Below are positions 2,582 through 34,310 of a stretch of 34,310 bases of DNA, piece by piece. Position 1 is the first letter of the stretch, and each line of letters opens with the position of its first letter. This DNA comes from a virus. The notes under the pieces were generated by a model. That model made no database searches, was not told the origin of the DNA, and was given only the letters and a program-made list of their open reading frames with translations. The stretch is from IMG/VR virus record IMGVR_UViG_3300033892_000029; one strand, written 5' to 3'. Position numbers and translations under genes: made by a program.

Positions 2582-2830
2582 TCACGCCTCCCGCAACGGC
2601 TTGAACTCGGCGACCGCGGCCCAGTAGGCGTTGGGCATCTCGCCGCTACACACGACGGTGTAGCCGTGCTGGCGCAACCACACTTCCCCGATATCGAACG
2701 GGTTGGCGTAGTCGTAGTCATACGGGAGGATTACCGCATCCCGCTCGAAACGTTGCGACGTGAGCTTGACGCGCGCGCCGCGCGACATGGTTGGGCCAAG
2801 GAAAGCGATCTTGATCAGGTGAGCGTTCAT
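2582..2830 (-). CDS. Hypothetical protein (82 aa), first CDS of the leftward operon
   Basis: ATG at 2830 inside ORF 2582..2959, preceded by AAGGGG. MNAHLIKIAFLGPTMSRGARVKLTSQRFERDAVILPYDYDYANPFDIGEVWLRQHGYTVVCSGEMPNAYWAAVAEFKPLREA. The upstream part of the listed ORF is the tRNA-like element read as protein. Confidence 0.7.
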   Translation of the reverse strand: MNAHLIKIAFLGPTMSRGARVKLTSQRFERDAVILPYDYDYANPFDIGEVWLRQHGYTVVCSGEMPNAYWAAVAEFKPLREA

Positions 2831-2852
2831 GGGGTGCCCCTTGTGAGATGGA

Positions 2853-2923
2853 TGGCGCCGGGAGCGGGAGTCGAACCCGCTGTCAGAACCTATGTTCAGG
2901 TAGGACCGCCCTACTTCCCCGAC
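2853..2923 (-). tRNA. tRNA-like element (71 nt with encoded CCA) with a truncated anticodon arm; not an ordinary tRNA by my folding
   Basis: The minus strand reads GTCGGGG-AA-GTAG-GGCGGTC-CTAC-CTGAACATAGGTTCTGACA-GCGGG-TTCGACT-CCCGC-TCCCGGC-G-CCA. It has a 7-bp acceptor stem (two G-U pairs), a 4-bp D stem, a canonical T arm with TTCGAnT loop, a discriminator base and CCA. Only 19 nt lie between the D and T arms where about 22-23 are needed. The only pairing there is GAAC/GTTC around a 4-nt loop, so there is no 7-nt anticodon loop. Confidence 0.5.
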
Positions 2924-2931
2924 GTGTTGCC

Positions 2932-2959
2932 AATCTATCACGTCTGACACGTATGTCAA
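2932..2959 (-). promoter_or_regulatory. Sigma-70-type promoter for the leftward operon
   Basis: The minus strand reads TTGACA (2959-2954), a 16-nt spacer, then TAGATT (2937-2932). The predicted start is about 7 nt downstream, 1-2 nt before the 5' end of the tRNA-like element at 2923. Confidence 0.5.
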
Positions 2960-3075
2960 GCATTATTTCCCTTCCATCCGTGGCCTTTCCCCTTGTTTCG
3001 TCCATCGATTCAGCATTCGTTCACCCGATTGCCGCCAAGCGCTTCCTCTATTGCTCCATCCATGGCTTGAGCTAA

Positions 3076-3095
3076 GGATGAATCCTTTCTATGCA
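3076..3095. repeat. 20-bp direct repeat, copy A (GGATGAATCCTTTCTATGCA)
   Basis: 17/20 identical to 3301-3320. Each copy has a CCATGG close to its left side. Confidence 0.7.
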
Positions 3096-3300
3096 TGGAC
3101 CATCAATGACTTAGCAAGGTTACCGTGTGTGTGTAGCAGCAGTAGGGTAGTGAGTTCTAACACTGTAACTCCTGATCCATCTTCTTCCATATCATAGTTA
3201 AATCATCACTCGCATAAGCTGTAACATTTGACTAATCCATAGATATAGCTTAAGAAGCGACAGCGGCTGTAGCATGAGTTCAAGCACAGGATGTAGCCAT

Positions 3301-3320
3301 GGATGGATCTTTTCTGTGCA
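3301..3320. repeat. 20-bp direct repeat, copy B (GGATGGATCTTTTCTGTGCA)
   Basis: 17/20 identical to 3076-3095, 225 bp away. The two copies bracket the AT-rich island. Confidence 0.7.
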
Positions 3321-3592
3321 GGAGGACAGCTCAGGCGGGAAGAGGCTGGAACGCGCTGTGAGCGTCTGTGCGGCGTTTCCAGCGTGGGGTCGGTAGGGTG
3401 GTAGCGGCCCCCTCCCTGGCTGGCGCTCTGGATCGATCCTGATCGGTTCCAGCCCCCTCCGATCCCTCCCTTCCGACTCCCGACCCGGCGCTTTGGGCTT
3501 TTCGCTCGATCAACAGAGAGGCTCCACCCTCCCCCACCCCAGGAAAAAATTCGGTGGAGAGGGCTTAATCACCCTCCCCCTTTCTGGCACCC

Positions 3593-3632
3593 CCGTAGCT
3601 AACGAAGCTCCCCATAGGCGTCTTAGCTACGG
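3593..3632. promoter_or_regulatory. Inverted-repeat pair 1: CCGTAGCTAA-20 nt-TTAGCTACGG (candidate operator, pac-type site or RNA hairpin)
   Basis: Perfect 10-bp arms at 3593-3602 and 3623-3632 with an exact 20-nt spacer. The right arm extends as TTAGCTACGGACCCC. Confidence 0.6.
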
Positions 3633-3666
3633 ACCCCATGGGCGGGAACAGTGGGTCAAAAACCCT

Positions 3667-3706
3667 CCGTAGCCAACGGATACAAAAATGGACGGCTTAG
3701 CTACGG
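3667..3706. promoter_or_regulatory. Inverted-repeat pair 2: CCGTAGCCAA-20 nt-TTAGCTACGG
   Basis: Arms at 3667-3676 and 3697-3706 (one mismatch), again with an exact 20-nt spacer and the same TTAGCTACGGACCCC extension. Offset from pair 1 is 74 bp. Confidence 0.6.
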
Positions 3707-3813
3707 ACCCCTGGGATGGATCGGTGACCCGGAAATCCCACCCCTTATCGGGCCATGGCTGACGCAGTAAGCTTGACCTGCAGCCGGCCTGTTGCTGGCG
3801 CGGGAGAAGAAAC

Positions 3814-4032
3814 ATGGCACGCAGCAAGGTCGATCAGCCGGTGGTGCGTTTGAGCGTGGGGCAGATGACGCCGGGCAATGTGAAGGAGCGCACGTTCCAT
3901 CCGAACGGGGTGGACGGCTATACCGGTCCCAGCTACAGCAACCGGCGAGGCAACAGCAACGTCCAGGGCACGTCCAAGCCGGTGGCCCGGTTTGGGGTGG
4001 CGACGGGCAACCGCGGCGAGTGGAAGCGGTGA
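3814..4032 (+). CDS. Hypothetical protein (72 aa), first CDS of the rightward block
   Basis: ORF track. GGGAGA lies upstream of the ATG, third codon positions are strongly G/C, and the stop overlaps the next start (GTGA at 4029-4032). Confidence 0.7.
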   Translation: MARSKVDQPVVRLSVGQMTPGNVKERTFHPNGVDGYTGPSYSNRRGNSNVQGTSKPVARFGVATGNRGEWKR

Positions 4033-4289
4033 GCGCAAAGCCTGGCAAGGAAGCCAAGTCGGGGAATGTGAAACGCCTGTTGCTCCCGGTGGAGCGCTGC
4101 AACCAAGAGTGCGTCGCCAAGTTGGAGCAGCTTCTGGCCATGGCGAAGGCCGGGGAAATCGTCAGTGTTCACGGCATCGCCGAATCAGGTGGAACGTACT
4201 TCATCTACTCGACCCGGACGGCATCGCGCACCCAGACTGCGGGCGCGCTGCTGGACGCCGCCATCGAGCGGCTGAAGGACGACGAATGA
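4029..4289 (+). CDS. Hypothetical protein (86 aa)
   Basis: GTG at 4029 in the frame of ORF 3792..4289. VSAKPGKEAKSGNVKRLLLPVERCNQECVAKLEQLLAMAKAGEIVSVHGIAESGGTYFIYSTRTASRTQTAGALLDAAIERLKDDE. The upstream part of the listed ORF looks like an out-of-frame read of the previous gene. Confidence 0.6.
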   Translation: MSAKPGKEAKSGNVKRLLLPVERCNQECVAKLEQLLAMAKAGEIVSVHGIAESGGTYFIYSTRTASRTQTAGALLDAAIERLKDDE

Positions 4290-4615
4290 AAACCGCCGCC
4301 GGTATCCGCGCCTATATCCGCCGTTCCCGGGTGCCGATCGCCGACTGGGCGCGGGCGCTGGGCGTGCACTACACCTCGCTCTACCGCATGGTCTGCGGGG
4401 TGAGCGGGATGCAGGAGGGGCCCTTGATGCGGCGCGCCATGTGGATGGTGCAGGCGCTGGAGGAAGGGCAGGCCCGCTGGGAGCGCAGCACGCTGCCCGA
4501 CGGCCATGGCGCATGGCGCATCCAGGGCCTGGCCTTCACGCCGACCACGATGGTCACCTACCGGGCCAATTTCCTCGGCGGTACGTTCCAGCGCATCGAG
4601 GGCGTCGAAACGTGA
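4286..4615 (+). CDS. HTH-containing small protein (109 aa); small-terminase/DNA-recognition candidate by position
   Basis: ATG at 4286 (ATGA overlap) in the frame of ORF 3992..4615. MKTAAGIRAYIRRSRVPIADWARALGVHYTSLYRMVCGVSG has a helix-turn-helix pattern. It lies immediately upstream of, and is translationally coupled to, the large terminase (GTGA at 4612-4615). The role is inferred from synteny only. Confidence 0.55.
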   Translation: MKTAAGIRAYIRRSRVPIADWARALGVHYTSLYRMVCGVSGMQEGPLMRRAMWMVQALEEGQARWERSTLPDGHGAWRIQGLAFTPTTMVTYRANFLGGTFQRIEGVET

Positions 4616-6417
4616 AGTTCCCTCGCCAGCAGTTCGAGACGTTCTGCAGCCGCCTGGTGCTGAACTCCAAGGAGCAGGGCCGGGTGCCGTTCCGGTGGAA
4701 CGGGGCACAGGTGCGTTTCGTGGATGAAATGGAAAAGGGCTTAGGCCGCGAGCAGCACAAGATCGTCGTGTGCAAGGCCCGCCAGCTGGGCATCACCACG
4801 ATGACGCTGGCGCTGGACCTGTTCTGGCTGTTCCGCCATCCAGGTACGCAGGGGGCGCTGGCGGTCAGCAACGAGTCGGTCCGCGACCTGTCGCGCAACA
4901 TCCTGACCAACTACCTGGACGGGTTGCCCAACGGCATGAAGGTGCCGGTGAAGATCGACAACCGCACCGAGATCCGTTTCACCAACACCTCGCGTCTGGC
5001 CCACATGATCGCCGGCGGCCGCAACTCCGGCGCGCTGGCTCGCGGCCAGGGTCTCAACTACGCCCACATGACCGAGATGAGCAGTTGGGCGGACCCGGAG
5101 GGGGTGGTGTCGCTGGATGCCTCGCTCGCCGAAACGCACCCCAACCGCCTCTACATTGCCGAGTCCACCGCGCGCGGGTTCAACGTCTTCCACGACATGT
5201 GGGAGGACGCCGAGCGCTCGCTCTCGACCAACGCGATCTTCATCGGCTGGTGGGCGAAGGAGGACTATCGCATGCCGCGCACCTCGCGGCTGTGGGATAC
5301 CTATGGACGCGCCCGGCCCAGCCGCGACGAGCAGGCGTGGGCACGCGAGGTGAAGAAGCGCTACGGCCACGAGATCACCCCCGAGCAGTTCGCCTGGTGG
5401 CGCTGGAAGTGGGCCGAATCGGGCGAGAGCCGCCTCCTGGTCGCCGAGTATCCCTGGACCGCCGACCAGGCCTTCGTCATGACCGGCGACCAGTTCTTCG
5501 GCGCGCAGACGCTCAAGAAAATCAAGGAAGCCGCGTTGCAGGTGCCGCGGCAGTGCTGGCGCTACGTGATCGGCCCGCGCTTCGAGGACACGGCGTTGGA
5601 GCCCGATGAGGACGGTCCGCTGTCGATCTTCGAGGAGCCGCGTTCGGACGCCGAGTACGTGATCGCCGCCGATCCGGCCTACGGGGAGAGCGAGTGGGCC
5701 GATCACTTCTGCGCCCAGGTGCTGCGCTGCGAGCGCGACCGCGTGGTGCAGGTGGCGGAGTTCAACTCTCCCGATTGCACCATGTACGGCTTTGCCTGGA
5801 TTCTTGCCCACCTGGCCGGCGCCTATTCCTCGATCGCCAAGCCGGCCACCCTGATCATCGAGCTGGGCGGCCCGGGGCGGGGCGTGCTGCAGGAGCTGCA
5901 GCGCATGCCCGAGCAGTACGCCGACCGCATCGACTCGCTCAGCCCCAGCGCGCAGCGGGCGCTTCAGAACCTGTTCGGTTCGATCCGCCACTACCTGTAC
6001 CGTCGCCCCGACAGCCTCTCCGGCGGCCGGCTGCTGCAATGGGAGACGACCTGGAAGACCAAGCAGATCATGATGAACCTGTTGCGCGACGGCATCGAGC
6101 GCGGCATGGTCACGGTCAACAGCCCCGAATGGCCCGAGGAGGCGCGCTACGTCACCCAGAACGGCAGCCGCATCCAAGCCGAAGGCCAGCACAAGGACGA
6201 CCGCGTGGTGGCGATGGCGCTGGGCGTGGTGGCCTGGCAGCAGCAGGTGCTGCCCGAACTCCTGGCCGCCCATGCCGAAGCCGGCTACGGCCGCGGGCCG
6301 GCCGCGCCGCTGGATCGCGCGGTGCACAACTGGCTGGACGGCATCCGCTCGGGCGCCGAGGATGCGCTCTGGTCCACGCCTTCCTACGGCTACGCATCCT
6401 GGGACGAGTTGCAGTAG
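4612..6417 (+). CDS. terL: Terminase large subunit (601 aa)
   Basis: GTG at 4612 in the frame of ORF 4441..6417. Walker-A-like VVCKARQLGITT, then LAHMIAGG...GQGLNYAHMTEMSSW, ESTARG, and a C-terminal nuclease-type HKDDRVVAMALGVVAW. The gene sits upstream of the portal. Confidence 0.88.
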   Translation: MKFPRQQFETFCSRLVLNSKEQGRVPFRWNGAQVRFVDEMEKGLGREQHKIVVCKARQLGITTMTLALDLFWLFRHPGTQGALAVSNESVRDLSRNILTNYLDGLPNGMKVPVKIDNRTEIRFTNTSRLAHMIAGGRNSGALARGQGLNYAHMTEMSSWADPEGVVSLDASLAETHPNRLYIAESTARGFNVFHDMWEDAERSLSTNAIFIGWWAKEDYRMPRTSRLWDTYGRARPSRDEQAWAREVKKRYGHEITPEQFAWWRWKWAESGESRLLVAEYPWTADQAFVMTGDQFFGAQTLKKIKEAALQVPRQCWRYVIGPRFEDTALEPDEDGPLSIFEEPRSDAEYVIAADPAYGESEWADHFCAQVLRCERDRVVQVAEFNSPDCTMYGFAWILAHLAGAYSSIAKPATLIIELGGPGRGVLQELQRMPEQYADRIDSLSPSAQRALQNLFGSIRHYLYRRPDSLSGGRLLQWETTWKTKQIMMNLLRDGIERGMVTVNSPEWPEEARYVTQNGSRIQAEGQHKDDRVVAMALGVVAWQQQVLPELLAAHAEAGYGRGPAAPLDRAVHNWLDGIRSGAEDALWSTPSYGYASWDELQ

Positions 6418-6499
6418 CATCGCACGCAAAGCATGCTCTGAGCGTTGGCTTTACCAACGATCATCGCCGCATAGCCACCCTAAGACCGGAGGACTGTCC

Positions 6500-6727
6500 A
6501 TGAGCCGTCTGACCGCCGCGGAACGTCGCAAGCGCCCGGCGCGGGATTTCGCGGGGCCGGACAAGACCTTTCCGGACTACGACCGCAAGCACCAGCGCGC
6601 GGCGATCTCCGGTGCCTCGCGCGCCTACCATGCCGGCCACATCAGCAAGGCGACCGAGCAGCGCATCCAAGCCCGCGAGCGCCGCAAGCTGTCCTCCCGC
6701 TCCACCCGCAAAGGATCTTCCCGATGA
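6500..6727 (+). CDS. Small basic protein (75 aa)
   Basis: ATG at 6500 with GGAGGA at 6488-6493. MSRLTAAERRKRPARDFAGPDKTFPDYDRKHQRAAISGASRAYHAGHISKATEQRIQARERRKL... From memory it resembles the DUF6582-type small proteins; unverified. Confidence 0.6.
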   Translation: MSRLTAAERRKRPARDFAGPDKTFPDYDRKHQRAAISGASRAYHAGHISKATEQRIQARERRKLSSRSTRKGSSR

Positions 6728-6864
6728 TTACCGCCCTGTTCTGGATCTTGATCGCCCTCGTGGCGCTCGACGTCATTGCCCACCTTCAGCACATCACGGT
6801 CGTGGATGAGCTGAAAAAGGACCTGGCATGGATCAAGTCCAAGCTGGAGGGAGGCTCTTCGTGA
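6724..6864 (+). CDS. Small membrane protein (46 aa)
   Basis: Hand translation: MITALFWILIALVALDVIAHLQHITVVDELKKDLAWIKSKLEGGSS. ATGA overlaps at both ends and an N-terminal hydrophobic helix. Confidence 0.5.
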   Translation: MITALFWILIALVALDVIAHLQHITVVDELKKDLAWIKSKLEGGSS

Positions 6865-7388
6865 TGAAGCGCTGGCGCTGTCTCCACTGCTGGGCGCCGG
6901 AGGTGGCGGAGGCCGAGTGGGAAGACCATCTCACGCAGTCGTTCTGCCGCCTGTGCGGGAGCGCCGGCACGCGCATCTACGAATTCGGCTGCTTCGTGTG
7001 CGACGACCAGGGCGTGATCTTCTGGGGCGAGGAGGCGCCCAGCCACCCCTGTCCGGACTGCAACAGCCCGTCCTACCGCATCGTGCATGCGCCCTACGTC
7101 GCCAGCCCCGAGCGCCGTGCCGATTTCAAGGCCGCCGACCGACTGCTGGAGACCGAGTTGACGAACCAGAACCGCTCCCTCTCCACCTTCGAGCGCAACG
7201 CCAAGCCGGTGGACGAGCGCGTGGCGGCCGCGCGGGCGCAAGCACAAGCGAATGGCGGCCTGGCCGGCGGCTGGGTCGCGCCGGCGCAGGTGATCGGTCG
7301 TGCGATGCCAGGCAGTCAGGCGAACCCGCTGGGCACGATGCCGCGGCCCACGACGATCATCGCCGGCAAATACGACAAGGTGGACTAG
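6864..7388 (+). CDS. Double zinc-ribbon protein (174 aa) between terminase and portal
   Basis: ATG at 6864 in ORF 6828..7388. Four CxxC pairs: CLHC, CRLC, CFVC and CPDC. Confidence 0.65.
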   Translation: MKRWRCLHCWAPEVAEAEWEDHLTQSFCRLCGSAGTRIYEFGCFVCDDQGVIFWGEEAPSHPCPDCNSPSYRIVHAPYVASPERRADFKAADRLLETELTNQNRSLSTFERNAKPVDERVAAARAQAQANGGLAGGWVAPAQVIGRAMPGSQANPLGTMPRPTTIIAGKYDKVD

Positions 7389-7391
7389 CTC

Positions 7392-9065
7392 ATGCGCATC
7401 CCGAAGGCGCCGGCGGAACGGATCGACTGGCTGTACAGCACGCTCGCCCGCCTGCGTCGCTCGATGGACGACCGGCGCGCCAAGGCGCGCACGTGGCGCA
7501 GCTGGTACCTGCATGGCGCCCCGGAGTGGGGCGCGCGCTACAACATGATCTGCCCGCAGGTGAACACCCTGGCCGGCTACCTGTACGCGCCGCGCAGCGT
7601 GCGTTTCAGCCTCAACGCCGGGCCGGTGGCCAAGGCCGGCAAGATCGCCCTGTTCGAGACCGCCGCGGTGCGCCTGCGCACGCTGTGGAACGAGTCCTGC
7701 GCGGATGAGGCCTACAGCAACCAGACGCTCTGGAGCCTGGTCTATGGCTCGAGCTTCCTGAAGTTCCGCTGGGCCGAGGGCAAGCCGCGCTGCCTGCCGG
7801 TGGCGGCCTTTGACCTGGGCGTGTGGCGCGACGACCTGCCGGACCTGGAAGATCAACAGGCGATCCTGCACACCTATCGGCTGGATGGGGAGACCGTGCG
7901 CCTGTGGCTGGTCTCCGCCGGCATGCCCGGACCGGAGGTGGACGCGTGGATGCGCCGCTTGGGCAACGGCAACAGCGGCGAAAGCCCCAGCCGCGGCGCG
8001 GTTGCAGTGGGCCAGATGAACCCGATCGGGTGGTCCGGCGGCGTCTCGCAGGGCGTGGCCGGCGCGGTGACCGACTGGGGCAGCGTCAGTGCCGACTACG
8101 GCGGTGATTCGCCGACGCTGGAGATCGAGGAGATGTGGGTGCGCGACGATGCGACCCGCGACTGGCGCATCTTCCAGATCATCGAGAAGGACCTGATCCT
8201 GTCCGATCGGCCGAACGATTTCCTGCCCGAGCACCATCCGTTCGTCAAACTCACCCCGGACCCGGTGGATGAATGGTTCTGGGGCCGCTCGACGGTGGAG
8301 CAGCTGATTCCGCTGCAGGCCCTGCGCGAGAAGCGCATGAACCAGCTCGACCGCCTGTGCGCGCGCCAGGCCAACCCGCCGATGGTGGCCAGCGGCCTGA
8401 GCGGCGTGACCGACGAGAAGGCGGCGGCCGTGATGCGCCGCGGCGGCCTGCTGGGTTCCTCGCAGGTGCCCGGCGCCAAGATCGACCTGCTCACGCCGCA
8501 GGTCTCGGAAATCAGCTTCGCGCTGATCAACGACATCGACGCGATGTTTTCCAACACGCTTGGCCTCACCGACATGCTGCAGGGCCAATCCTCAGGCAAC
8601 GAGCGTGGCGGCGCGCACGCGCGGGCGATGATGGAAGCGGGCGCCAGCCGCCTGACGCGCCGGATGCAGAACGTGGAGCGCGCAGTGGCGGAAGGCGCCT
8701 CGCTGCTGATGGAGCTGGCCAAGCGCTACGACGACACGGTGCTGGTCGATGATGACGATCAGCGCTACCTCATGGCGCAGGTGCCGGAGGAAGCGATGGT
8801 GGAAGTGGCCGCGCATTCGGCCTCGCCGCTGTTCGCCACCCGCGCGCAGCAGGACGCCGCGCAGCTGATGGAGCTGGGCATCATCGACAAGACCGATTTC
8901 CTGGACCTGGCCGATCCGCCGATGTCCGAGGCGCTCAAGATGCGCATGAAGGCGCGCGACAAGCAGCACCAGAAGCAGGTCCAGCAGGCCATCCAGCAGA
9001 CCCCCGAGAACGACCGCTGGCAGCTGTTTACCAGCCTGCTGGGCCTCGGCAAGAAGCGCGCCTGA
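7392..9065 (+). CDS. Portal protein (557 aa)
   Basis: ORF track. The size, the position after the terminase and ahead of scaffold and capsid, and the acidic/basic helical C-terminus all fit. No search was run. Confidence 0.75.
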   Translation: MRIPKAPAERIDWLYSTLARLRRSMDDRRAKARTWRSWYLHGAPEWGARYNMICPQVNTLAGYLYAPRSVRFSLNAGPVAKAGKIALFETAAVRLRTLWNESCADEAYSNQTLWSLVYGSSFLKFRWAEGKPRCLPVAAFDLGVWRDDLPDLEDQQAILHTYRLDGETVRLWLVSAGMPGPEVDAWMRRLGNGNSGESPSRGAVAVGQMNPIGWSGGVSQGVAGAVTDWGSVSADYGGDSPTLEIEEMWVRDDATRDWRIFQIIEKDLILSDRPNDFLPEHHPFVKLTPDPVDEWFWGRSTVEQLIPLQALREKRMNQLDRLCARQANPPMVASGLSGVTDEKAAAVMRRGGLLGSSQVPGAKIDLLTPQVSEISFALINDIDAMFSNTLGLTDMLQGQSSGNERGGAHARAMMEAGASRLTRRMQNVERAVAEGASLLMELAKRYDDTVLVDDDDQRYLMAQVPEEAMVEVAAHSASPLFATRAQQDAAQLMELGIIDKTDFLDLADPPMSEALKMRMKARDKQHQKQVQQAIQQTPENDRWQLFTSLLGLGKKRA

Positions 9066-29900: not shown

Positions 29901-30307
29901 GGCGCCCCTCCCGTATTGAGGGCTTGCTGGATCGACGTCGGCAAAGGACCCAGCCACGTGGCCGCTGCCGTGTCGGAGGAGGGAATGGCATGCAGCTTCT
30001 GCTGCAATGCGATCACCTGTTTGGTTTGTGCTTGGACCAAGGCTTCGCGTTGGGAGGCCGCTTCTTGGGCCGCGGTTGCCGCGTCCTGCGCCTGAATAAG
30101 CTGCGCCGCGTCGGCCTGTGCCTGTGCCTGCTGCGCGGCGGTAGAGGCTCGAGTGATGGCCTGCGCCTGCGTGGCTTTGTACTGCGCCAGCGCCGCCGCA
30201 CCCGCTTGCGCGCCTTCGTGGTGGCCATAGAGGTAGCCGCCCAGCAGGCAGGCAAATAGCAGCAGGAGCGCGGCGAGAATCTTGATAGCGAGACTTTGCA
30301 GGTTCAT
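29897..30307 (-). CDS. i-spanin (136 aa)
   Basis: ORF track. N-terminal TM helix (LAIKILAALLLLFACLLGGYLY) followed by an Ala/Gln-rich coiled coil, immediately upstream of the lipoprotein gene. Confidence 0.8.
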   Translation of the reverse strand: MNLQSLAIKILAALLLLFACLLGGYLYGHHEGAQAGAAALAQYKATQAQAITRASTAAQQAQAQADAAQLIQAQDAATAAQEAASQREALVQAQTKQVIALQQKLHAIPSSDTAAATWLGPLPTSIQQALNTGGAP

Positions 30308-30597
30308 ACCTTTGACTCCTTCGCCATGGCGGCATCGATGGATGCATCAAGTTGTAGTGGGCCGCTTCGATACGTGCCGTAGTAGAGCTGTGCTGCCTCT
30401 CCGTATTCGCCGGTTAGTTCCGTCGCATTTATCTTGAGCCACCGATACCGCGCCGCATCCTTTGCGTCCTGCTCGATCTGGGCAGCGTGGCGCTTGATGA
30501 ATAGACGCAGAGCGAGTTCCGTGTCAGAAAGCGGCAGGCAACTTCTTGTATCGGCGCATGCCTGCACAACCTCGCACAAGTCTTCAAGCATGGTCAT
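30304..30597 (-). CDS. Hypothetical protein (97 aa)
   Basis: ORF track. Protein-like, with a 4-nt overlap with the i-spanin start. Confidence 0.6.
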   Translation of the reverse strand: MTMLEDLCEVVQACADTRSCLPLSDTELALRLFIKRHAAQIEQDAKDAARYRWLKINATELTGEYGEAAQLYYGTYRSGPLQLDASIDAAMAKESKV

Positions 30598-33882: not shown

Positions 33883-34310
33883 TTAGGTACGGCGCGGCGG
33901 ATGGATGTATTCGGCCTGCGGATCGCCGATGCGCCACGCCTGCGCGGCGAGGGCCGTGTCGATGGGAAGGTTGTCGATATCGGAAACGCGCGGCACCCCT
34001 TCCACGATCGTGCCATTGCGCGGGCATTCGGCTTTAAGGAAGCGGCCCGGTTCAGCCAATCCCGGGAGATCCAGCTCGATGAGTTGGCCGATGGTCGGCG
34101 AGCCGCTATCGTGGATCACGCGCGCTTTGAGCACTTGCAACATCTTCGGCCACCCGACAATAGCAGCCCCGGCGGCGCGCTGTTCGACATTTTCCGCTCG
34201 GATGACTTCGCGAGGGTCAAGATGCTCACGATCTTCAATCCAGTGCGCCGGCACGCGCACGCCATGCCAGTGGTAAAGCGACCAACCGTCGCGCCAGCGA
34301 TGCGAGGGTC
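33883..34310 (-). CDS. C-terminal part of the wrap-around DUF6745-like gene (see 1..1316); 34184-34310 duplicates 1-127
   Basis: ORF 33883..34260 is listed with an internal GTG, but the frame stays open to the window end and continues at base 128 on the circle. ...SHRWRDGWSLYHWHGVRVPAHWIEDREHLDPREVIRAENVEQRAAGAAIVGWPKMLQVLKARVIHDSGSPTIGQLIELDLPG... Confidence 0.8.
   Translation of the reverse strand, partial: PSHRWRDGWSLYHWHGVRVPAHWIEDREHLDPREVIRAENVEQRAAGAAIVGWPKMLQVLKARVIHDSGSPTIGQLIELDLPGLAEPGRFLKAECPRNGTIVEGVPRVSDIDNLPIDTALAAQAWRIGDPQAEYIHPPRRT
34184..34310. repeat. Terminal direct repeat, right copy (identical to 1-127)
   Basis: Exact 127-nt identity read by eye. Confidence 0.95.

Follow-up and report, generated by a model that had tools for sequence, protein, structure and literature searches.

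The two inverted repeat pairs that lie upstream of the late operon of this phage are, on alignment, diverged tandem copies of one discrete palindromic cassette of ~50 bp. It is probably a portable cis-element of small size, rather than a conserved switch for the late genes or a packaging site of this phage. As judged from comparison with related genomes, it is discrete, optional among relatives and recurrent in a second lineage (L066), where it occupies other positions and another orientation; among the aligned units, constancy is limited to the arms, the 20-bp spacing and the left G-tract. Such scattered distribution points to a portable unit. The favoured reading, with a probability of roughly 0.4, is that of an accessory portable palindromic cis-element which would serve at the DNA level as a site for a symmetric protein, with an add-on architectural or regulatory role. 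The term window is used here for the whole stretch of DNA analysed (34,310 nucleotides).

Genome organization and the divergent control region

The first 127 bases of the window are the same as its last 127 bases (1-127 and 34184-34310). It is probably a complete, circularly assembled tailed-phage genome of ~34.18 kb, the circularity resting solely on this 127-bp assembly overlap. The G+C content of the window is ~66%. Identical gp1, representing the same phage, was found on dozens of contigs from many samples, and no nucleotide similarity to isolated phages was detected with the whole genome, the region 3000-7000 or the element. Early genes are directed leftward and late genes rightward, and both diverge from a single control region (2960-3813). 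The rightward structural operon is long and extends to 27595, and the stop and start codons of gp1, gp2, gp3 and TerL overlap. The leftward operon crosses the circle, and its last genes code for an exonuclease, a spanin-like protein and an endolysin. The early proteins are mostly without annotation, and the window ORFs scanned yielded no integrase, transposase or recombinase. Mosaicism extends to the beginning of the late operon, since the presence of gp2 varies among lineages: it is found in the window, L023, L024, L026 and L027 and is missing from L066, L028, L031 and L019.

The control region contains other signals beside the palindromic units (Table 1). A classical operator is more plausibly sought in the palindrome overlapping the leftward promoter than in the flagged 10-mer element. 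Both this promoter and its palindrome are kept in L001. The TAAGCT box is a candidate -10 element of a late promoter. A small hairpin is situated at ~3781-3799, just 5' of the gp1 Shine-Dalgarno, and reads GCCGG...CTGGC in the window (alignment A3). Its counterparts in other lineages read GCCGG...CCGGC, CCAGC...GCTGG and similar, with two-sided changes which apparently keep the pairing, and it may stabilise the 5' end of the late mRNA.

Table 1. Positions of the features discussed, in the window and in the second carrier L066
Feature	Position	Strand or direction	Remarks
Leftward sigma70-type promoter TTGACA-16-TAGATT, extended -10 TG	2932..2959	-	Promoter scan 2800-4100
Palindrome TGACACGTATGTCA	2945-2958		Overlaps leftward promoter
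Conserved non-coding block, ~500 bp	3050..3550		Alignment A4; 11 lineages
Promoter-like site TTGACT-17-TAAGAA	3228-3256	rightward	Read from sequence; scan tool made no call
Lineage-specific insert, ~210 bp	~3553..3763		Holds both units and other small hairpins
Unit u1, GGGGT-CCGTAGCTAA-GACGCCTATGGGGAGCTTCG-TTAGCTACGG-GGGTG	3588..3637	-	nhmmer profile, alignment A8, folds
Pair 1 left arm CCGTAGCTAA	3593..3602	+	
Pair 1 right arm TTAGCTACGG	3623..3632	-	Perfect complement of left arm; 20-nt spacer
Unit u2, GGGGT-CCGTAGCTAA-GCCGTCCATTTTTGTATCCG-TTGGCTACGG-AGGGT	3662..3711	-	nhmmer profile; alignment with L066 u3
Pair 2 left arm CCGTAGCCAA	3667..3676	+	One mismatch: C.A on + strand, G.U on - strand
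Pair 2 right arm TTAGCTACGG	3697..3706	-	20-nt spacer
TAAGCT box	3768..3773	+	Alignment A3; ~40 nt before gp1 ATG; aligns with TAGGAT elsewhere
gp1, 72 aa	3814..4032	+	Opens rightward operon; ATG at 3814
gp2, 86 aa	4029-4289	+	Second gene of rightward operon
gp3, HTH protein	4286-4615	+	Small-terminase candidate; precedes TerL
TerL	4612-6417	+	Rightward operon
Portal, SU10-type	7392-9065		Rightward operon
L066 u3, GGGGG-CCGTAGCTAA-N20-TTAGCGACGG-GGGGG	left of conserved block		In ~116-bp insert
L066 u4, GGGGT-CTGTAGCTAA-N20-TTAACTACAG-ACCCT	directly 3' of A-run		

Two palindromic units in the window

An earlier, sequence-only reading had described four copies of a 10-mer arranged as two inverted pairs with identical spacers. 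This description was confirmed in its details. All four 10-mers are present (Table 1), both spacers are exactly 20 nt, the first pair is perfect and the second has one mismatch. The pairs are offset by 74 bp, or nearly 7 helical turns, and each right arm extends as TTAGCTACGGACCCC. The distances given for the first rightward gene (ATG 3814) and for the HTH gene (4286) are likewise correct. The exact motif is absent elsewhere in the 34.3-kb window, and the sole match with one mismatch is at 33883. The claim that this geometry is hard to get by chance holds for the recurrence of the same arms and spacing but not for one pair alone, as the genome contains 5 perfect 10-nt inverted repeats with a 3-40 nt spacer against 4.2 expected from first-order Markov simulations. 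A chance origin was rejected for the recurrence, in which the same arms and spacing occur twice here and twice in the second lineage.

The consensus of the ~50-bp unit on the minus strand is GGGGT-CCGTAGCTAA-N20-TTRGCTACGG-RGGG. The two window copies, u1 and u2, are 73% identical over 48 nt. On alignment, the unit is tandemly duplicated in the window lineage, and u2 is closer to L066 u3 than to u1.

A second carrier with other unit positions and orientation

Relatives were gathered by TerL and gp1 searches, which gave 11 lineages with the gp1-gp3-TerL arrangement; four further contigs belong to the window phage itself, and across the element they show 100% identity. L066, a 33.9-kb contig with gp1 71% and gp3 75% identical to those of the window, has two copies of the unit, and the known units are four, in two lineages. 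The L066 copies, u3 and u4, are situated on opposite sides of the conserved non-coding block, u3 being ~660 bp to the left of u4; the two are separated by 614 bp, as against 25 bp for the window units. The ~116-bp insert which holds u3 is missing from L028, the closest relative of L066. Local alignment of window u2 (minus strand) with u3 gave 41 identical positions of 49, with 16 of 20 in the loop; the homology ends at the unit edges and the flanks are without homology. By this alignment u2 is the ortholog of L066 u3.

With an nhmmer profile built from the four units, the scores of the window copies were 45 and 39 bits for the minus strand and 7-8 for the plus strand (38.6 against 7.9 bits for u1). 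According to these strand scores, the window copies are inverted relative to the L066 copies with respect to the late operon. When the four units are aligned in common orientation, the left G-tract, the 10-bp arms and the exactly 20-nt spacer are constant in all of them, and five of the eight half-sites are exactly CCGTAGCTAA. The loops diverge by 50-85% between paralogs, and the four spacers contain zero indels.

The slot insert of L066 also contains a strong intrinsic terminator (4199-4219) with the T-run TTTTCGTTTG on the plus strand, just before the TAGGAT box of gp1. A second set of promoter-like boxes (GTGGTAGTGAGAT... and TAAGCT) is found after u4 at L066 4110-4230, and the terminator lies ~50-70 nt beyond these boxes. 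The stretch 4110-4230 may be a small RNA gene or a recombination relic. No regulator gene exclusive to both carriers was found in the L066 sequence covered (14.5 kb). The sole extra protein common to the carriers (window 30304-30597 and L066 1071-1508) shows 35% identity over 57 aa, and no DNA-binding signature was found in it.

An optional insert in a hypervariable slot

Extension of the 10-mer search to related genomes, as the sequence-only reading had proposed, went against that reading: the unit is absent in 9 of the 11 lineages, including the two nearest relatives. The nhmmer profile of the four units revealed no degenerate units in relatives, and no unit was found within 10.9 kb of L018. 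Seven lineages (L019, L023, L026, L028, L031, L076/77 and L078) are without an inverted repeat, and in all seven the A-run is followed by the box within ~25 bp. Situated ~40 nt ahead of the gp1 start, this box reads TAAGCT in the window, L023 and L024, whereas most lineages have TAGGAT. The slot measures 46 bp in L001/L024 and ~20-25 bp in compact relatives, and L027 has a different insert of ~45 bp. Altogether the slot after the A-run shows five different contents over the 11 lineages. Since the slot contents of relatives are compact or different, the element is regarded as an optional insert in a hypervariable slot.

L001/L024 is the nearest relative of the window (TerL 94% and gp3 93% identical), and its slot has an unrelated dyad, CTGCAGT-N20-ACTGCAG, with a spacer which is likewise 20 nt. 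This dyad is positioned at L001 4131-4164 and L024 1404-1437 and ends 17-18 bp 5' of the TAAGCT box. It could be a coincidence, or the same architecture with other specificity. The L002-L004 group is more distant (TerL 64% identical); here the slot, at 3270-3830 of L004, has TTTTGATC/GATCAAA repeats in a cluster, a single TTGGCTACGGG and an additional winged-helix gene. The promoter of this gene, TTGACG-17-TATAGT, is bracketed by a 16-bp inverted repeat.

The conserved non-coding block beside the element

The conserved block ends with CCCCACCCC and the A-run (A6-7), directly left of the insert. Its mean column identity is 75%, which is similar to the divergence of the flanking proteins, and its plus strand is very C-rich. 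The invariant motifs in the block are GTGTGTGTGTAGCAG, GAGTTCCAACACTGTAAC, GGTAGGrTGGTAGC..CCCCCTCCC and CCGACCCGGCGCTTTGGG. RNAalifold gave no support for RNA structure in the block, with a covariation term of merely -0.33 kcal/mol. The promoter-like site at 3228-3256 is kept in all lineages, as TTGACG-17-TATAAG in some, and is directed through the block toward the late operon. The scan tool misses it because the final T is absent from its -10. The block may be an origin, a packaging region, a leader RNA or a rut site, and it is probably more important than the flagged element. For core functions such as origin, packaging or leader RNA, it is a more promising target than the palindromes.

Two partial contigs of different lineages, L022 and L029, start <=~17 bp apart at the window-equivalent position ~3446-3463, near GGTTCCAGCC. 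This shared start could be a physical genome end or a coverage break, and with two data points it may also be coincidence. A sub-threshold Rfam match to the Na+ riboswitch (DUF1646) at 3528-3580 on the minus strand (21.9 bits against a gathering threshold of 40.5, E = 0.05) is most likely a chance match in a G-rich stretch.

Reading of the unit as a DNA-level site

A DNA-level reading is favoured because the orientation is flipped between the lineages despite the kept u2/u3 loop, and because the sequence of the arms is conserved beyond structure. The lack of spacer indels together with strongly diverged loops and a kept, unpaired left G-tract argues for a geometric constraint of the protein type over a free loop. 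Moreover, u3 is situated between the leftward promoter and the conserved block, so that the promoter-like sites recognised give no sign of transcription through it. In the proposed mechanism, the cassette is carried by the ~210-bp insert in the slot between the conserved block and the promoter-proximal leader of the terminase/structural operon, and it would be read at the DNA level as duplex or as extruded hairpin. The putative reader, encoded by phage or host, would be a protein with two-fold symmetry which contacts half-sites 30 bp apart centre-to-centre, over a centre that is usually an A/T-tract. With such a reader, the unit may serve the late and early promoters as an accessory roadblock, insulator or upstream site, and it would spread between phages through recombination.

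Several features do not fit easily with this picture. The centre-to-centre distance of 30 bp is unusual for simple dimeric HTH operators, the C-G to T-A change and the 18-bp stem of u4 fit base-pairing selection, and the unpaired G-tracts, present at both ends of one strand, add a polarity which a symmetric dimer does not need. The positions of the units also vary relative to the candidate promoters, and the units known amount to four, from two lineages. The search for a binding protein gave no candidate: gp3 shows no co-variation, and the winged-helix protein is without a homolog in the L066 part covered.

Possible mobility without a phage role

That the unit is a selfish miniature palindrome of the REP/REPIN/MITE type, having no phage role, spread by recombination or by a hairpin-recognising enzyme and then tandemly duplicated, is doubtful but deserves to be weighed seriously. 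It would account for a discrete 49-50-bp module without flank homology, found at varied sites and in varied orientations in two non-sister lineages and lacking in the closest relatives of each carrier. All four units can form hairpins on either strand. Each arm contains GTAG and polar G-tracts flank the unit, and GTAG-tagged REPs have been described (PMC3733652). However, the GTAG of the units is paired within the stem and is not an unpaired terminal tag, and the copy number is merely 2 per genome.

The database searches also weaken this explanation. When 596 Gb of sequence from 185,579 species representatives was scanned with a degenerate form of the inverted repeat (20-nt gap), there were 6 single hits against roughly nine expected by chance, in unrelated taxa and with unrelated loops and flanks, and no multi-copy genome was present among these representatives. 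A host REP-like repeat was rejected, as the genome-wide scan is at chance level. No homolog of the unit was found in IMG/VR by exact arms, degenerate arms or the u2/u3 loop signature, and a scan with a 16-mer of the conserved block retrieved just the already known relative. Among the window ORFs scanned (Pfam, PHROGs), no RAYT, IS200-like, HUH or transposase gene was detected. The inserted segments (about 116, 195 and 210 bp) exceed the unit and show no evident target-site duplication. Finally, a spacer of exactly 20 nt in four of four units despite 50-85% loop divergence argues for functional constraint.

Folding of the units and a possible role in RNA

The four units fold as hairpins on either strand. 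As RNA, hairpin 1 of the plus strand has a folding energy of -19.7 kcal/mol (z = -5.0), and in u4 an extended complementarity produces an 18-bp stem of -31 to -33 kcal/mol (z about -8 to -10). Pairing is retained in 38 of 40 cells over the four units, with one wobble change and two broken pairs, and there is one compensatory pair, C-G to U-A (T-A) in u4. The stability of hairpin 1 and of u4, the lengthened u4 stem and the retained pairing would suit transcribed RNA stem-loops in a leader which runs from 3228-3256 into the late operon and acts in RNase III-type processing, stability, pausing or anti-readthrough, or PeSL-like insulation. This role is unlikely, although it too deserves to be weighed. 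It would be in line with the plus-strand terminator of L066, which shows that rightward transcription crosses the slot, with the unrelated inverted repeat with a 20-nt loop that fills the slot of L001/L024, and with the G-tracts, which make an otherwise symmetric unit polar, as expected for a hairpin or for transcription. The stem-loops of PeSLs also offer a precedent (PMC2839356).

Other results stand against transcribed stem-loops. The covariation analysis recommended by the sequence-only reading did yield the compensatory pair, but this is not significant, since 122 of 500 shuffles reach it. Folding of the 271-nt region does not surpass that of shuffled sequence, with z = -0.74 and -1.02 for the two strands. 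The orientation is flipped between lineages though 16/20 of the u2/u3 loop is kept, u3 is upstream of both flanking candidate promoters, and the imperfections are not consistently wobble pairs on one unit strand. Rfam 15 gave no family match at the gathering threshold, and ARAGORN detected no tRNA and no tmRNA. An intrinsic terminator was rejected for the 20-nt loops and the lack of a U-tract or T-run abutting the 10-bp stems. The sole call of the terminator scan is a 5-bp sub-hairpin on the minus strand (3680-3666) followed by GGGTTTTTGA, and no terminator-type call spans a whole unit. No promoter was found in the insert (3553-3763), the scan of 2800-4100 having detected only the leftward promoter (2959-2932).

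Still less probable, and put forward as speculation, is that phages carry a family of miniature polar hairpin cassettes, composed of a G-tract, a 10-bp stem, a 20-nt loop and another G-tract, of which these units are the first representatives. A structure-specific enzyme, such as an HUH/Y1-type nickase, a primosome factor or a terminase accessory factor, would read them in the form of single-stranded DNA hairpins, and this reading would move them between control regions and give them a role in replication start or concatemer processing beside the conserved block.

gp3 and the idea of a late switch or packaging site

The sequence-only reading considered the pairs as operators or RNA hairpins and gave a late-gene regulatory switch or a pac-type terminase site as its leading ideas. 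Matched palindromes with fixed spacing in the main regulatory region are indeed present, but the late-switch or pac role proposed for the 4286-4615 HTH protein was not borne out: the unit is optional, and gp3 is near-invariant regardless of its presence. The gp3 HTH segment is near-invariant in the 9 lineages aligned, just 2 of which have the unit. The few HTH variants fall in two groups, each with one carrier and several non-carriers. gp3 of L024 and L023, which are without the motif, is 91-93% identical to that of the window, while the motif-bearing L066 has 75% identity. gp3 as the reader of the unit was rejected, as it does not co-vary with the unit. A search by sequence found no PDB relative of gp3. 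For the winged-helix protein at 1626-1976, no homolog was found in 14.5 kb of L066, and the BrxR-like winged-helix protein of L066 is unrelated to it.

The architecture of lambda cosB (R3-I1-R2) resembles the inverted half-sites of the unit round an A/T-rich centre. Paired operators or a pac/cosB-type site for gp3 or the 1626-1976 winged-helix protein, acting in late control or packaging start, could draw on this geometry, on a site ~100 bp upstream of the operon encoding gp3 and TerL and on an offset close to 7 helical turns, but are very improbable given the motif-free L024 and L023 with their nearly identical gp3, the absence of the unit from L018 (10.9 kb) and the remaining relatives, the separation of 614 bp in L066 against 25 bp in the window, the L066 copies placed elsewhere in the control region in opposite orientation, and a winged-helix protein without homolog in the L066 part covered. 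A striking dyad near terminase genes need not be a pac site or a late switch; the relatives show the present one to be optional. If the unit is a portable binding or hairpin module, small soil phages would swap non-coding regulatory parts as units, like genes, and the unit would offer a compact 50-bp handle toward the factor which reads it.

Comparison with known systems

Lambda cosB-type sites (R3-I1-R2) possess inverted elements with a bendable A/T-rich centre, are situated upstream of terminase and go with an HTH small subunit. The units are similar in their inverted elements, A/T-rich centre and position just upstream of terminase/HTH genes, but a cosB-type site should persist with its terminase and the unit is absent where gp3 is 91-93% identical. 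Like phage immunity operators, the units are repeated dyad sites in a divergent promoter region, and the L001/L024 dyad, with other arms and the same spacer, recalls the exchange of operator specificity in immunity regions. Unlike classical operators, they have half-sites spaced far wider (30 bp centre-to-centre), no co-varying regulator and no fixed promoter distance.

Some other repeat classes could be set aside. CRISPR-like repeats are near-identical repeats of 25-37 nt, and u1 and u2 are just 73% identical over 48 nt. TIGR arrays have an adjacent Tas protein with a Nop domain and loops with two spacers of 8-12 nt and box C/D motifs (PMC12045711); no Nop domain was found in the ORFs scanned, among them the flanking ones, and a 20-nt loop is too short for the dual-spacer layout (PMC12045711). 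Comparison by eye with Sigma54 UAS, LexA, IHF, attC, the CRISPR I-F repeat and TIGR, using known consensus sequences or PMC12045711, revealed no fit.

The nearest analogues on record are GTAG-type REPs and, in T4-type phages, the PeSL cassettes (Arbiol et al. 2010, PMC2839356), which are small, conserved, non-coding and contain a stem-loop, often of GGGG...CCCC form. PeSLs are situated in the most plastic part of the genome, where they border the insertions, deletions and replacements that distinguish close relatives, and recombination is thought to move them (PMC2839356). The present units are similarly placed in a hypervariable slot at indel or replacement boundaries and have G-tract flanks. 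However, a PeSL comprises a terminator-type stem-loop together with a strong sigma70 promoter, and PeSLs are numerous in a genome and flank ORFan genes (PMC2839356), whereas the units have no promoter called in the insert, no U-tract, a 20-nt loop, two copies per genome and no ORF.

GTAG REPs (Di Nocera et al. 2013, PMC3733652) are imperfect palindromes of 20-50 bp with stems of 6-13 bp and, in some families, loops of up to 27 bp, and REPs can form head-to-tail or inverted dimers 20-100 bp apart (PMC3733652). Like REP, BIME and REPIN elements, the units are short imperfect palindromes in a dimer arrangement and contain GTAG. REPs differ in being high-copy chromosomal elements with an unpaired terminal GTAG (or CGTC), often linked to RAYT (PMC3733652). 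In the units, GTAG is at stem positions 3-6 of both arms and is paired, there are 2 copies, and no RAYT was found in the window ORFs scanned. Since the unit departs from PeSLs in promoter and copy number and from REPs in the unpaired terminal tag and high copy number, it is a member of neither family, but a variant of the small palindromic intergenic cassette.
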